Source: a virus (lineage: Duplodnaviria; Heunggongvirae; Uroviricota; Caudoviricetes). Taken from it: 64,000 nucleotides of DNA. The translations under genes were made by a program, and so were the position numbers. Under the pieces are notes generated by a model. It made no database searches. It was not told the DNA's origin and was given only the letters and a program-made list of their open reading frames with translations. Positions 4,307 to 31,581 of this stretch are shown piece after piece (position 1 is the stretch's first letter; the number at the start of each line of letters is the position of its first letter). The stretch lies in IMG/VR virus record IMGVR_UViG_3300029485_000297. One strand, given 5' to 3'.

Positions 4307-5272
4307 TGATTTAGAAGGCACTTGTTTTGCACAGTGTTCTACCAAAGAAAAGGCAGAAAAGGCAATGCAAATTCTTAAAGAAAACGGTTTTGAAGATATG
4401 CTTGAGGTTGAACAAAGTAATTTAAGATTAGACCAGTTAGTGATTCAAGATAAAATAATTCAGTTGTAAAAGAAATTCGCATTTCTTTAGAAGATTGGAG
4501 GAATCAAAAATGAAAAAATCAAACATTAGAGTATTCGGAGAAATAAGTATTGCACATGTGGAAAAGAGAGGTTTATTTTCATATGCGGTTGTAAGGGACT
4601 TTGATAAAAAGGTACTTGCCAAATCTTTTTCATTTAGAAAATACATAAACGATACTATTCGTACAATGTATACAGGAGAATATTACGCAACAGGTGATTA
4701 CATATTGGTTGCTGACACTGTAAATGGAAATAAAGAAATTTATAGATGGCATTGAAACTAAGATTTTTTAGGAAGGAGTGAAGGGAAATGGCAAAATATA
4801 CATGTAGCAAGACAAAGGATGAAATTCTTGAAATTATTGCAGAGGAATTTAGAAAAGTAAATAAGGATTATGATGATGCAATGCAGAACGACAATGATAA
4901 ACTCAAAGAACGGAATCAGGGTAGATATGTAGCAATGTTTGATTTGTTACATAAGTTAGAAATTTATGAAAAGGAGTGAAGCGAAATGACAACTATTGAA
5001 AAGTCAAAAGAGGATGCACGGAACTTAAATGAACTCACGGATCATCTGATTAAGCTGCTTGAATCGGATGACAAGCGGTTCTCATTTGAATTTTGTGCAG
5101 GTGGCACAATGGAGATTTACGACAAAGAAAAAGAAATCGGTTATGCAGTTCACATTGCACCGATTGAATATGATGAGAACGGAAAAGCAATAAATTTATA
5201 GTAACCGCAAGGCAGTTAGGAGAATAATCTACTAGCTGCCTATTTTATTACAAGAAAGAGAGGAAATGAATT

Positions 5273-24447: not shown

Positions 24448-24476
24448 CTTGACAATATATATAGTGAAGTATATAA
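24448..24476 (+). promoter_or_regulatory. sigma70-type promoter (TTGACA-17-TATAAT)
   Basis: TTGACA 24448-24453, 17-nt spacer, TATAAT 24471-24476, about 45 nt upstream of the 24521 gene. Confidence 0.45.
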
Positions 24477-24520
24477 TACAAAATATCAAAGGAACAAACA
24501 GAGAAAGGAGGGCTAAAGCA

Positions 24521-24871
24521 ATGGACATAAAACGTGGTGAAATATACTTCGCAGATGTAGGTAGATATGATTCTCAGGGTTCTGAACAGAGTGGTAGAAG
24601 ACCAGTGTTAATACTTCAGAATGACATTGGAAATAAATTTAGCCCTACCACTATTATTGCCATTATAACTACGAAGTCTAAAAGGGAATTACCAACTCAC
24701 GTTGAGTTACATAAAGATAAATTCAACGGATTAAAACACGATTCTGTTGTAGCTCTTGAACAAATTACCACAATAGATAAAGATAGACTAAAGTTTAAGA
24801 TTGGTAATTTATCTAATGATGATAATGTTCGTGTTATGGAAGCGATGAAAATAAGTCTGGCTATGATATAG
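24521..24871 (+). CDS. MazF/PemK-family endoribonuclease-like protein
   Basis: RGEIYFADVG...GSEQSGRRPVLILQND...PTTIIAIITT are the MazF/PemK signatures. RBS GAAAGGAGGG. No MazE-like ORF upstream. Confidence 0.65.
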   Translation: MDIKRGEIYFADVGRYDSQGSEQSGRRPVLILQNDIGNKFSPTTIIAIITTKSKRELPTHVELHKDKFNGLKHDSVVALEQITTIDKDRLKFKIGNLSNDDNVRVMEAMKISLAMI

Positions 24872-28491: not shown

Positions 28492-28677
28492 AACATTGTT
28501 AAAAAGTATTGTATTAAAAAAGAAAATGCAAATTGAAATAATGGAAACCTTGTCTGATATTTGTTTATATATGCAATTAGACGGATTCAAAAAAGATAAT
28601 GGGTATGGTCAATTTATGTATACACACTATAGCAATTTACAGGATATTTTAAAAGAGTATAAGGGAGAAAAATAACT

Positions 28678-28878
28678 ATGCCAGATATTACAATGTGTAC
28701 AAGCAAAACATGTGAAAGAAGAAAACAGTGTTATAGAGCAATAGCAAAGCCAGATAAGATACAAAGTTATGCTGATTTTACTTCGTTATGTGCAGATAGA
28801 GATTTTAGGTGTCAATGGATTGTTACTGACAGAGAAGTACTTGCTGATGATATAAGTAGCTTGTTAGTAAGATGCTAA
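28678..28878 (+). CDS. small Cys-rich protein
   Basis: CTSKTCERRKQCYR...C...C over 66 aa. Confidence 0.4.
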   Translation: MPDITMCTSKTCERRKQCYRAIAKPDKIQSYADFTSLCADRDFRCQWIVTDREVLADDISSLLVRC

Positions 28879-29180
28879 AATACAGGAGAATAATAAAATG
28901 GATAAAGATACAAATAAGCGAAATGAACTTAGAAAACAGTTACAAGCCTTATCAAAGGAGCGAATTATTGAATTATATATTCACTTATTCATGAATTTTG
29001 CTAATGATAAGGATGAAACCGATTGGGAAGATATTAAATAGAAGAGAACAGATTGCACAAGTTTACCGACCTAAACAACCTGCTCAGAGAATAAAATATA
29101 GGATAAACTATATATGTTCTATTATAACAAATCTATTTGGCTAATTCAAGCCAGTTTATCCTATAACAATTAGTCTTTTG

Positions 29181-29257
29181 ACTACGGGCTATTTTGAGTC
29201 CGAATAGTGAGGATTATATCACTCACTGAAAAGTATGTAATTTATATGTAATTTGAA
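29181..29257 (+). other. conserved leader/scaffold element 1 (hairpin - GAAT - hairpin - anti-repeat-like segment - TTTGAAG)
   Basis: Stem cgggct/agtccg with ATTTTG loop, GTGAG...CTCAC hairpin, and GTATGTAATTT complementary to the repeat core AAATTACATAC. Homologous to 29505-29586 and 31188-31268. Confidence 0.45.
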
Positions 29258-29487
29258 GTTTTGGAAGTATATGAAATTACATACTAACAAAATTAATAGA
29301 GATGATAAATGATGAAAGTATACGTTTTGGAAGTATATGAAATTACATACTAACAAAATATCTGGCAACAGAGAGGAGATGTTTCAGTTGTTTTGGAAGT
29401 ATAGTTACATACTAGCAAAATTACATAATATGTATCGACACAAGTTATAAATTTTTAGAAGTATATAAAATTACATCTCATTAAAAG
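29258..29487 (+). CRISPR. CRISPR-like mini-array 1 (4 repeats, 3 spacers)
   Basis: 36-nt repeat GTTTTGGAAGTATATGAAATTACATACTAACAAAAT identical at 29258 and 29324. 30-nt unique spacers. The third repeat is 32 nt with a 4-nt deletion, the fourth is degenerate. Confidence 0.6.
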
Positions 29488-29504
29488 AATATATAAATGA
29501 AATT

Positions 29505-29586
29505 AAAATCAATTCTATTGCGGTAGATTTTACTGCCGAATCGTGAGTGCAATGCAACTCATGAAAATCTATGTAATAAGTTTGAG
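29505..29586 (+). other. conserved leader/scaffold element 2
   Basis: Stem cggtag/ctgccg with ATTTTA loop, CCGAATCGTGAG, hairpin, and TCTATGTAAT complementary to the array-2 repeat core. Ends TTTGAG directly before the first repeat. Confidence 0.45.
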
Positions 29587-29754
29587 GTTTTAGATACATA
29601 TAAAATTACATAGGTATAAAACAAACCTGTTGAAATTGTTGAAGATATAGAAGTTTTAGATACATATAAAATTACATAGGTATAAAACACTTGCGTTGTT
29701 GTACTTGTAAGCTGTTTAATTTTAGAGATATTTAAAATTACAAAAAATATAAAA
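29587..29754 (+). CRISPR. CRISPR-like mini-array 2 (3 repeats, 2 spacers)
   Basis: 36-nt repeat GTTTTAGATACATATAAAATTACATAGGTATAAAAC identical at 29587 and 29653. 30-nt spacers. A degenerate terminal repeat at 29719-29754 abuts the nuclease RBS. Confidence 0.6.
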
Positions 29755-29769
29755 GGAGATTTACAAATT

Positions 29770-31158
29770 ATGGGAAACAATAGAATGACAATTTGTAGAA
29801 AAATTAAATTATTTCCAGTAGGAGATAAGGATGAAATCAATAGAGTATATAACTTTATTAGAAATGGTCAGTATGCTCAATATCAGGCTTGTAACCTGCT
29901 TATGGGACAGCTTATGAGTGAATATTACAAATATAATCGTGATATTAAGAATGAAGAATTTAAGGCAAGACAGAAAGAAATAATGACAAACTCTAATATC
30001 ATATTAAAAGATATTGATTTTGCAACTGGTGTAGACACTCCATCAGCCGTTACTCAGAAAGTCAAGCAGGATTTCAGCACAGCTTTAAAGAATGGATTGG
30101 CTAAAGGTGAACGAACTGTAACAAATTATAAGAGAACTAATCCACTTATTACAAGAGGCAGAAACTTAACTTTTTATCATGAGTATGAAACATATCATGA
30201 TTTTTTAGACAAGATTAATGATTCTGATTTGGCGGTATATGTCAAGTGGGTTAATAAAATTGTATTTAAGGTTGTGTTTGGCAATCCGCATAGGTCATTA
30301 GAGTTAAGATCTGTTATTCAGAATATATTAGAAGAGAATTATAAAGTGCAAGGAAGTAGCATTGAAATTGATGGTAAGTCAATCATTTTAAATCTCTCAA
30401 TATCTATTCCAAAACAACTTAGAGAGCTGGATGAAAATATAGTAGTAGGTGTTGATTTAGGCATTGCAGTTCCTGCTATGTGTGCTTTAAACAATAATCT
30501 TTACGAGAGATTGGCAATTGGAAATGCAGATGATTTTCTAAGAATAAGAACTAAAATGCAAGCTCAGAGAAAAAGATTACAGAAGTCATTACGAAATACT
30601 TCTGGTGGTCATGGTAGAGCAAAGAAACTGAAAGCATTAGAAAGATTGCAGAAAGCAGAAGTACATTTTGTTGAAACATATTGTCATATGATAAGTAAAA
30701 GAGTCGTTGATTTTGCTTTAAAACATAATGCTAAATACATAAATATTGAGAATTTAACAGGATATGATACAAGTGATTTTATCCTGAGAAATTGGAGTTA
30801 TTATAAACTTCAAGATTATATTACATATAAAGCAGCTAAATACGGAATAGAAGTAAGAAAAATCAATCCTTGTTATACATCACAGATTTGTAGTGTATGT
30901 GGTAATTGGGAGTTTGGTCAGAGAAAGTCACAGTCAGTATTTGAATGTGCAAATGAGAATTGTGATAGTCATAAAAAATATGAAAAAACTGGTTTTAATG
31001 CAGACTTCAATGCTGCCAGAAACATTGCAATGTCAACTCTTTGGATGGGAAGTGGACAAGTTACTGAAAAGAGTAAACAGGAAGCAAGAGAATATTATGA
31101 TATCTCTGAAAAATATGAACAAAGTAAGAATGGTTCAGAGAATAATAAAGTAGCTTAA
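29770..31158 (+). CDS. TnpB/Cas12-family RuvC nuclease, 462 aa (compact type V-like effector candidate)
   Basis: RuvC-I VVGVDLGIAVPA. RuvC-II KYINIENLTG. Zinc finger CYTSQICSVCG...CANENC. RuvC-III NADFNAARNIA. N-terminal MTICRKIKLFPVGD as in TnpB/Cas12f. RBS AAGGAG 29753-29758. Confidence 0.85.
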   Translation: MGNNRMTICRKIKLFPVGDKDEINRVYNFIRNGQYAQYQACNLLMGQLMSEYYKYNRDIKNEEFKARQKEIMTNSNIILKDIDFATGVDTPSAVTQKVKQDFSTALKNGLAKGERTVTNYKRTNPLITRGRNLTFYHEYETYHDFLDKINDSDLAVYVKWVNKIVFKVVFGNPHRSLELRSVIQNILEENYKVQGSSIEIDGKSIILNLSISIPKQLRELDENIVVGVDLGIAVPAMCALNNNLYERLAIGNADDFLRIRTKMQAQRKRLQKSLRNTSGGHGRAKKLKALERLQKAEVHFVETYCHMISKRVVDFALKHNAKYINIENLTGYDTSDFILRNWSYYKLQDYITYKAAKYGIEVRKINPCYTSQICSVCGNWEFGQRKSQSVFECANENCDSHKKYEKTGFNADFNAARNIAMSTLWMGSGQVTEKSKQEAREYYDISEKYEQSKNGSENNKVA

Positions 31159-31187
31159 GTGCTACTTAATCAATCGTAAGATTGCAG

Positions 31188-31268
31188 GTGATTTTGCACC
31201 TGAATGGCGAGGTTGTTAATTAATGGCACTCGTTAGAATCTATGTTAATAGTATCTGTGTGATTTGAG
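31188..31268 (+). other. conserved leader/scaffold element 3
   Basis: Stem caggtg/cacctg with ATTTTG loop, then GAATGGCGAGG, then ATCTATGTTAA complementary to the downstream repeat core TTAACATAGAT. Ends TTTGAG. Confidence 0.4.
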
Positions 31269-31370
31269 GTTTTAGATATGTTTAATTTAACATAGATACA
31301 AAACACGGTTAAGACAACATTTTACTCAGTAAAATGATTATTCAATATAGATACTACAGAAATGTTGAGA
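31269..31370 (+). CRISPR. CRISPR-like mini-array 3 (1 repeat, 1 spacer, degenerate repeat)
   Basis: GTTTTAGATATGTTTAATTTAACATAGATACAAAAC relates to the array-2 repeat. A 30-nt spacer follows, then a degenerate copy containing ATAGATAC. Confidence 0.4.
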
Positions 31371-31419
31371 TTATCAAGCTAATGGAAGAAAAATATAATA
31401 CGAAAAGGAGAATAGTTAA

Positions 31420-31581
31420 ATGTCAGTATTTTTTATATTAGTTTTAATAGGATTAATAATTTTATGGTTTCTACTGTCACCTTTATTTGAAAAAATTGGT
31501 AAGTTTGTTATCAATGTTATAAATAAAGTATTTTCGACAGATGAAATAAATAATAACGAAGAAAAGGAGACAAAAGAATGA
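31420..31581 (+). CDS. small single-pass membrane protein (NfeD-like partner candidate)
   Basis: 53 aa with hydrophobic helix FFILVLIGLIILWFLL. AAAAGGAG RBS. Stop overlaps the SPFH start (ATGA). Confidence 0.35.
   Translation: MSVFFILVLIGLIILWFLLSPLFEKIGKFVINVINKVFSTDEINNNEEKETKE

Follow-up and report, generated by a model that had tools for sequence, protein, structure and literature searches.

Why would a phage that encodes a single miniature nuclease keep several CRISPR arrays, each built on a repeat of its own? The question is raised by positions 29,258 to 29,754 of the IMG/VR virus record IMGVR_UViG_3300029485_000297 (Caudoviricetes), a stretch of 64,000 nucleotides which was analysed as a whole and is hereafter called the window. 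On reading the sequence, two arrays with distinct 36-nt repeats are both found 5' of the only gene for a nuclease of 462 aa, the layout given by a preliminary description of this DNA, and the third repeat variant which it had placed downstream is indeed present at 31269-31304. We regard it as very probable that the ensemble is a phage-borne type V-F1 CRISPR-Cas12f1 locus with a single nuclease supplied by three paralogous cassettes, each combining a trans-activating CRISPR RNA (tracrRNA) and an array. While the preliminary description was right about the arrays and the single effector, it had missed both the leaders as tracrRNAs and the identity of the nuclease.

One nuclease gene and three cassettes

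Of the cassettes, two would precede the gene and the third would follow it immediately, each being a compact tracrRNA scaffold placed head-to-tail with its own mini array:

29166-29257, + strand, tracrRNA-like scaffold 1 (covariance-model match 29166-29293, 119.7 bits, E 1.7e-18)
29171-29184, 29185-29202 and 29206-29227, + strand, stem A, stem 1 and stem 2 of scaffold 1
29191-29196, + strand, pseudoknot loop ATTTTG within stem 1 of scaffold 1
29232-29243, + strand, anti-repeat AGTATGTAATTT of scaffold 1, and 29250-29257, its leader end AATTTGAA
29258-29487, + strand, array 1, with four repeats and three 30-nt spacers
29258-29293 and 29324-29359, + strand, exact repeats GTTTTGGAAGTATATGAAATTACATACTAACAAAAT (R1) of array 1
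29390-29421, + strand, third repeat of array 1, with a 4-nt deletion
29452-29487, + strand, terminal repeat of array 1, degenerate
29294-29323, 29360-29389 and 29422-29451, + strand, spacers of array 1, 30 nt each
29502-29586, + strand, tracrRNA-like scaffold 2 (covariance-model match 29502-29622, 122.7 bits, E 4.9e-19)
29521-29538 (loop ATTTTA) and 29542-29563, + strand, stem 1 and stem 2 of scaffold 2
29568-29577, + strand, anti-repeat TCTATGTAAT of scaffold 2, and 29579-29586, its leader end AGTTTGAG
29587-29754, + strand, array 2, with three repeats and two 30-nt spacers
29587-29622 and 29653-29688, + strand, exact repeats GTTTTAGATACATATAAAATTACATAGGTATAAAAC (R2) of array 2
29719-29754, + strand, terminal repeat of array 2, degenerate, its anti-repeat-pairing part gone
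29623-29652 and 29689-29718, + strand, spacers of array 2, 30 nt each
29755-29759, + strand, ribosome-binding site GGAGA of the nuclease gene, directly abutting the last repeat of array 2
29770-31158, + strand, cas12f1, the only nuclease gene of the locus (462 aa, ATG at 29770)
31166-31268, + strand, tracrRNA-like scaffold 3 (covariance-model match 31166-31304, 110.4 bits, E 7.5e-17), starting 8 nt past the nuclease stop codon
31172-31183, 31185-31202 (loop ATTTTG) and 31206-31234, + strand, stem A, stem 1 and stem 2 of scaffold 3
31238-31248, + strand, anti-repeat ATCTATGTTAA of scaffold 3, and 31261-31268, its leader end GATTTGAG
31269-31334, + strand, array 3 in a minimal state, 3' of the nuclease gene, with one repeat GTTTTAGATATGTTTAATTTAACATAGATACAAAAC (R3) at 31269-31304
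31305-31334, + strand, conserved trailing 30 nt of array 3, with no recognisable second repeat

Searched with a covariance model of the cassette, the 64-kb window yields three matches and no more, each of them on the + strand (E 5e-19 to 7e-17), an observation far above chance expectation, and the same layout was found again in 26 related viral loci from IMG/VR (related loci and target contigs are cited below by their L numbers). The two upstream repeats were first estimated to share about 60% identity; measured over their whole length, R1 and R2 agree at 26/36 positions (72%), R1 and R3 at 64% and R2 and R3 at 78%. This multi-cassette form looks functional and adds a new variant to type V-F1 rather than founding a system of a new kind; Cas12f loci with several cassettes were not found described in the literature searched, key subscription-only papers lying outside its reach.

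Regarding the nuclease, a search of PDB sequences returned 8hr5, which we take to be CnCas12f1 (E 7.8e-88), and 9nzp (E 1.8e-81), both homologous along the full length, followed by other Cas12f entries (AsCas12f, OsCas12f and Un1Cas12f) down to E 1e-25. The entry 9nzp is RhCas12f (PMC13186708). Consistent matches were obtained with the Pfam family Cas12f1-like_TNB (PF07282, E 1.7e-15) and with the PADLOC models Cas12u3 (7e-111) and Cas12f (2e-110). By alignment alone, the RuvC triad D229/E327/D412 is intact and falls on the CnCas12f1 and RhCas12f catalytic motifs, the zinc-finger cysteines C374, C377, C393 and C398 are present, and D89, R129 and R131 align with D77, R117 and R119 of RhCas12f, the residues that contact the CC of its protospacer-adjacent motif (PAM). 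Together, these database matches and the conserved catalytic and PAM-contact residues identify the predicted protein as a Cas12f1 (type V-F1, formerly V-U3) of the C-rich-PAM clade of CnCas12f1 and RhCas12f1. Two other comparisons were discarded: Cas12p ("Cas12 hacker"), a phage-encoded miniature Cas12, is practically unrelated (9jfs, E 0.0024; GTN PAM), and the uCas and Alistipes clades of Cas12f use other repeats and PAMs. An identical protein (29770-31155) is encoded on 54 public contigs and is listed in databases under no name but "IS605 OrfB family transposase"; since the longest of these contigs reaches 427 kb, the window may cover only a small part of the phage, or the phage may be integrated.

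Compensatory pairing between leaders and repeats

The approximately 100 nt that lie 5' of each first repeat can be aligned with one another and show the same two hairpins in their predicted folds (fold z-score of -4.6 for scaffold 1), and 3' of the hairpins comes a stretch complementary to the 3' half of the repeat. This order is also the one of the published RhCas12f1 tracrRNA (taken from the supplement of PMC10090079), in which stem 1 with its A/U-rich loop, stem 2 (GUGAG...CUCAC) and the anti-repeat follow each other with the same spacing. No Rfam family was found in a scan of positions 28500-32000 with E values up to 1.

Covariation was examined over 27 distinct cassettes, drawn from the window and the 26 related IMG/VR loci, for four helices: stem 1, stem 2, the repeat:anti-repeat duplex (12 positions) and a pseudoknot (6 positions) in which the stem-1 loop pairs with the final six repeat bases. 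In these helices 89.4% of the cells are paired, versus 29-44% after a shift of the 3' partners by 1-3 columns, a percentage which is inflated by the helices having been derived from the same sequences, unlike the two-sided changes. The latter occur in 24/33 pairs, and none of 500 shuffles matched the observed values. Both contacts between repeat and anti-repeat are covered; in the pseudoknot, the compensatory combinations of loop and tail are AUUUUG/CAAAAU, AUUUUA/UAAAAC, AUUUCG/CGAAAC and ACUUUG/CAAAGC. A pseudoknot directly ahead of the guide is conserved in the guide RNAs of TnpB and Cas12 enzymes, the one of Cas12f being known as "repeat:anti-repeat 1" (PMC10097598). Because of the Rh-like stems and spacing, the covariation of four helices and the pseudoknot ahead of the guide, we assign the leaders, on sequence grounds, as tracrRNAs.

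Each tracrRNA fits its own repeat best. Counted column by column, own pairs reach a mean of 14.9/18 against 12.3/18 for cross pairs, with the own pair ranking best in most of 23 cassettes. In the window, the tracrRNA of cassette 1 pairs with R1 at 17/18, R2 at 15/18 and R3 at 12/18, and that of cassette 3 with R3 at 16/18, R2 at 15/18 and R1 at 13/18, while cross pairs between the cassettes of L025 retain 15-17/18. These counts were used in place of a comparison of leader-repeat duplex energies, which was dropped because it is confounded by extra complementarity to the 5' half of the repeat. In cassettes 1 and 3, but not in cassette 2, the leader (29232-29257 and 31238-31268) also repeats part of the anti-repeat (ATATGTAATTTGAA and TCTGTGTGATTTGAG), 3' of the true one and ahead of the first repeat.

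Age and number of the cassettes can be read from the relatives. Across phages the cassettes cluster by position and not by phage, which indicates duplications older than these phages; they are hence predicted to be old paralogues, each co-evolved with its own repeat. Among the explanations offered in the preliminary description, this is the one that is supported, namely an old duplication of the modules followed by co-evolution with their leaders, given that both the anti-repeat and the stem-1 loop co-vary with the adjoining repeat. With the covariance model, the window has three cassettes, close relatives two to three, distant relatives among phages (L025, L022 and L024) four to six, and Lachnospiraceae and other relatives from bacterial assemblies one or two, every set of cassettes adjoining a cas12f homologue. 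Cassettes 1 and 2 are intact in 20/20 close relatives. Cassette 3 has collapsed by deletion in L005, L006, L008 and L010 (5397-5480), which have lost the anti-repeat and the 5' half of the repeat, and in L013 (5397-5470), where the deletion extends from stem 2 as far as mid-repeat, so that the number of cassettes varies among near-identical phages. The short cassette 3 of L005, L006 and L010 was considered as a natural single guide and rejected, since on alignment it looks like a deletion derivative without anti-repeat. In L014-L018 and L020, cassette 3 holds one true spacer between two repeats.

Plasmid targets, spacer turnover and competing explanations

A metagenome scan with the spacer common to cassette 2 of L002 and L003 and to cassette 3 of L020 returned three non-array human-gut contigs of 5.2-5.6 kb, two of which are indicated to be circular by terminal overlaps of 55 nt. 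A Mob_Pre relaxase and a Rep-like protein of 550 aa are encoded on them, and they partially resemble small plasmids of Clostridia. Five different spacers of the phage family, coming from cassette positions 1, 2 and 3, have their counterparts on this plasmid, differing at 0-3 positions and located within rep, within mob and in an intergenic region rich in hairpins; the window spacer 29360-29389 matches contigs L044, L045 and L047 at 27/30 positions, has no mismatch before position 20 and is flanked by TCCA on the 5' side. In all plasmid protospacers but one, mismatches are confined to position 20 or later. The 5' flanks read TCCA, TCCA, TCCT, CCCA and TCTA, hence 5'-CCW at 4/5 protospacers (in silico, for a single target family) where the CCW background is 2.2% of positions, and no motif is common to the 3' flanks. 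As the RhCas12f1 PAM is NCCD (PMC10090079), the predicted 5'-CCW motif reproduces it, and its side sets the direction of array transcription on the + strand. The same PAM and the same target for all cassette positions argue for one effector being served, and the single nuclease is thus predicted to use all cassettes. On L045 the protospacers are at 1569, 3565, 4426, 4520 and 4588. Three of them cluster in about 200 bp of this contig (OMDO01003330.1, 4426-4617), in an intergenic region with a perfect hairpin (AAACCCCACGAGTTGCGACCTCGTGGGGTTT), which may be an origin; the one with the TCTA flank, at 4520, moreover carries two mismatches in mid-guide and could be an escape variant. Elsewhere, the 59 spacers of the family gave no match among INPHARED phages and PLSDB plasmids, exact IMG/VR scans with five spacers or 20-22-nt seeds recovered only the arrays themselves, and a comparison with the window and all related loci collected recovered only array copies.

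The arrays also change. In L001-L003, whose nuclease is 100% identical to the one of the window, the leader-proximal spacers differ from those of the window and from each other, while the trailer spacers of cassettes 1 and 2 are common to all four phages; with identical or near-identical nucleases, four phages differ at the leader end of all three cassettes. Array 1 of the window joins a leader-proximal spacer unique to this phage to two older spacers common to 10 related loci, array 2 joins a unique leader-proximal spacer to a trailer spacer shared with L001-L003 and L020, and the trailing 30 nt of array 3 are identical in 8 related loci. Because trailer spacers are shared but leader-end spacers differ among near-identical phages, the arrays appear to be live, with all three cassettes kept current. 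Two peculiarities were noted among the spacers: a plasmid-matching one (GTAAAAGGAAAGTGGTCTGATGCTGATCTT), also found in cassette 3 of L020, occurs twice in tandem in one array of L003 (3723-3818), and the cassette 2 spacers of L006-L009 (3860-3889) and L010 (3811-3840) derive from the same source sequence in opposite orientations with a 4-nt offset.

From these elements the following mode of action can be proposed. Each tracrRNA would contact its repeat twice, by a duplex of 10-12 bp between the anti-repeat and the 3' half of the repeat and by a pseudoknot of 5-6 bp between the stem-1 loop and the last repeat bases, just ahead of the guide. As old duplicates, the cassettes would have let their repeats drift to 64-78% identity, with each tracrRNA following by compensatory change. 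All of them would load the same Cas12f, which would use the 5'-CCW PAM, read approximately 20 nt of guide and be directed against rival mobile DNA, in this case a small mobilisable plasmid. Read-through may yield a single + strand transcript of the locus, or a few of them, in which the first spacer of each cassette could fold in cis with the tracrRNA as a natural single guide and later spacers could pair with it in trans. Divergence may be tolerated or favoured, since the longest exact stretch common to two window cassettes, 7-16 nt, is too short for efficient homologous recombination. New spacers would be installed by the adaptation machinery of the host or of an unseen part of the phage.

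Three competing explanations bear on why the repeats differ. The least probable, already raised in the preliminary description, is that one array feeds the CRISPR effector of the host or of a co-resident element instead of the phage Cas12f. Viruses are known to carry mini-arrays whose repeats are identical to those of a host (review PMC11656645), and the present repeats have type II-A-like length and ends; however, every array is preceded by a co-varying Cas12f-type tracrRNA, spacers from all cassette positions point to the same plasmid with a Cas12f-type 5'-CCW PAM and orientation and no shared 3' flank, and a degenerate pattern for all three repeats, requiring exact matches at 24 positions, had 0 matches in 185,579 species-representative bacterial and archaeal genomes. 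The check put forward in the preliminary description thus gave a negative outcome, no repeat family shared with a host system having emerged from those representatives, and this explanation is largely refuted. It is also highly unlikely, if marginally less so, that a single cassette functions and the others are drifting relics whose divergence has no meaning. Such a decay would account for the collapse or deletion of cassette 3 in some close relatives and for the degenerate terminal repeats of arrays 1 and 2, but it agrees poorly with the integrity of cassettes 1 and 2 in all 20 close relatives, with recent leader-end spacer gain in all three cassettes, with plasmid-matching spacers at all three positions and with a pairing upheld by compensatory rather than random changes.

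The last explanation, which we judge unlikely without dismissing it, holds that the cassettes define orthogonal guide classes, each tracrRNA maturing only the CRISPR RNAs of its own array, which would permit separate regulation or avoid titration. Own tracr-repeat pairs outscore cross pairs in nearly every phage, and compensatory changes affect both contacts, which speaks in its favour. Yet several cross pairs lose just 1-2 base pairs (tracrRNA 1 or 3 with R2, and the pairs of L025), the protein-binding stems 1 and 2 are common to the cassettes, and with the same PAM and the same plasmid for all of them no functional specialisation is apparent. Given that cross pairing is largely retained, the cassettes are best described as co-adapted, strict insulation not being claimable.

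The reading of one Cas12f1 fed by three paralogous cassettes has its own weak points, to which the inflated pairing percentage belongs. Only one target family was found, and one of its five protospacers has no CC in the flank; the other five spacers or trailing sequences of the window had no match in the phage and plasmid collections, and four of these five, searched in IMG/VR, had none there. The decay of cassette 3 in some close relatives means that not every cassette is indispensable. A promoter scan gave 17 sites versus 18.7 expected from shuffles, hence no enrichment, and the advantage of several diverged cassettes is itself inferred.

Transcription signals add two features:

29137-29154, + strand, terminator-like hairpin closing an upstream block of small open reading frames (ORFs), 5' boundary of the locus
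29481-29509, + strand, weak promoter-like site TTAAAA-17-TAAAAT, overlapping the degenerate last repeat of array 1, 5' of scaffold 2

Two terminator-like sites were found where 0.3 were expected, the hairpin at 29137-29154 being the only one on the + strand, and none lies between the end of array 2 (29754) and the start of cas12f. The site at 29481-29509 could act as a promoter for cassette 2. As the preliminary description had noted, the terminal repeat of array 2 is joined to the ribosome-binding region, ending at 29754 where GGAGA begins at 29755; this repeat would supply the 5' untranslated region of cas12f, and since it is without the bases that pair with the anti-repeat, formation of a guide from the gene's own start would be prevented. 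A coupling of guides and nuclease by read-through is plausible.

Spacer supply, relatives and phage context

How the arrays are refilled, although no adaptation genes were seen among the window matches listed, may be reflected in the junction of leader and repeat. Of 56 distinct spacers obtained by a repeat scan, 40 are exactly 30 nt long, a length typical of type II-A, and the rest measure 28-31 nt. The junction is of the ATTTGAG/GTTT type (the slash marking the start of the repeat), with an exact ATTTGAG in 12/27 cassettes and TTTGAG in 19/27, and the island TTTGAG/GTTTTAGA carries 1.8-2.0 bits per position versus 0.3-0.9 at neighbouring leader positions while lying outside all four RNA helices. 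ATTTGAG is the leader end of group-1 type II-A loci (87/167 II-A loci), where it is essential for adaptation and spacer integration (PMC5382924). The cassettes thus share with type II-A arrays the 36-nt repeat, its GTTT and AAAC ends, the ATTTGAG leader end and the 30-nt spacers. They differ from them by a Cas12f-type tracrRNA, a PAM located 5' of the protospacer and the lack of a cas9-cas1-cas2-csn2 set: none of these four genes was seen in the window by PADLOC or among the Pfam matches listed, and neither Cas1, Cas2, Cas4 nor Csn2 is among the Pfam matches listed for 94 window ORFs, in a phage that extends past the window.

For type V-F1 systems, which lack adaptation modules, borrowing of type I-B machinery has been proposed (bioRxiv 10.1101/2024.04.09.587696), whereas the junction seen here is type II-A-like and not type I-B-like. 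For type IV-A3 systems on plasmids, spacer acquisition in trans by host Cas1-Cas2 has been reported (bioRxiv 10.1101/2023.06.23.546257). We therefore advance, only tentatively and as a suggestion with the odds against it, that the cassettes are II-A-style integration sites set on a Cas12f scaffold and refilled in trans by II-A-like Cas1-Cas2 of the host or of an unseen part of the phage; the 5' half of the repeat would then serve the integrase and its 3' half Cas12f. Owing to the PAM on the 5' side and the lack of a shared 3' flank, such a loan is not our main conclusion. A choice of spacers directed by host Cas9 was rejected, the five protospacers having no common 3' motif and a PAM on their 5' side.

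Compared with CnCas12f1 and RhCas12f1, the locus has a nuclease homologous along its full length with conserved RuvC, zinc-finger and PAM-contact residues, a 5'-CCW PAM corresponding to NCCD, a tracrRNA between gene and array (cassette 3) and, among the matches listed, no adaptation genes adjoining the nuclease gene. It departs from them by its three diverged tracr-array cassettes (up to six in relatives) instead of one, by its location on a phage and by a protein identity which is only moderate. With respect to RhCas12f1 in particular, the scaffold is shorter, without the CCUUGGUC...GACCAAG hairpin that precedes the Rh anti-repeat, and 36-nt repeats, 30-nt spacers and the ATTTGAG/GTTT junction contrast with an Rh repeat of 30 nt. 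Like virus-borne mini-arrays and other mobile CRISPR elements devoid of adaptation genes, it combines 1-4 spacers, a mobile element, rival mobile-element targets and spacer turnover; unlike virus-borne mini-arrays, the phage carries its own effector and tracrRNAs, and its repeats match no array in the representative genomes searched.

The comparison with TnpB and its omega-RNA is of evolutionary interest. The protein fold, a guide scaffold directly after the stop codon (cassette 3) and a pseudoknot ahead of the guide (PMC10097598) are common to both. In contrast with TnpB of IS200/IS605 elements, the locus has real arrays with variable, polarised spacers, and only the position of cassette 3 is omega-RNA-like; neither TnpA nor insertion sequence ends were seen, and the Y1 transposase family is absent among the Pfam matches listed. 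Relatives that are 55-65% identical carry an array-less, omega-RNA-like single-guide module (L033, 5282-5374; L034, 5036-5135; L055, 11245-11340), in which stem 1, stem 2, a short anti-repeat-loop-repeat hairpin, ...CAAAA(G/A) and a unique sequence come right after the stop codon. The single-guide carriers L055-L057 are phages of about 40 kb with a nuclease about 65% identical, and some relatives from bacterial assemblies have the anti-repeat-loop-repeat hairpin where the array would be. As single-guide and array-type relatives coexist, the clade spans omega-RNA-like and CRISPR-type arrangements. Both RNA arrangements have been described for the transposon-CRISPR intermediates TranC (bioRxiv 10.1101/2025.09.28.678669), and their coexistence in the present clade is a circumstantial parallel; LaTranC has 574 aa and a TTC PAM, versus 462 aa and a predicted 5'-CCW PAM here.

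The window is a region of a large human-gut phage with nearly all its ORFs on one strand, and its gene content, as predicted, is rich in accessory and counter-defence-like functions (e.g., at 24449-24871 and 31578-32447). Its Pfam matches include several DNA methyltransferases, NAPRTase together with NAD synthase, two integrases, an RNA ligase, a toxin of the PemK/MazF type, a gp17-type superinfection exclusion protein and, right after cassette 3, an SPFH/Band 7 protein. Genes for tRNA-Gln(UUG) and tRNA-Lys(UUU) lie at 32494-32566 and 32570-32644, about 1.2 kb 3' of the locus.

If the proposed reading is correct, this phage family provides a natural case of one miniature nuclease fed by several independent tracrRNA and array cassettes, and with it a very short natural Cas12f scaffold. 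The compensatory evolution of both RNA-RNA contacts would offer a comparative map of the guide-RNA positions that need pairing. A gut phage CRISPR system matching the rep, mob and origin-like regions of a small plasmid would be direct evidence for conflict between phages and plasmids, and refilled arrays with a II-A-like junction make the spacer source of adaptation-less type V systems directly testable. Finally, a clade that has both single-guide and array-type members bears on the origin of CRISPR arrays from the guide RNAs of TnpB.

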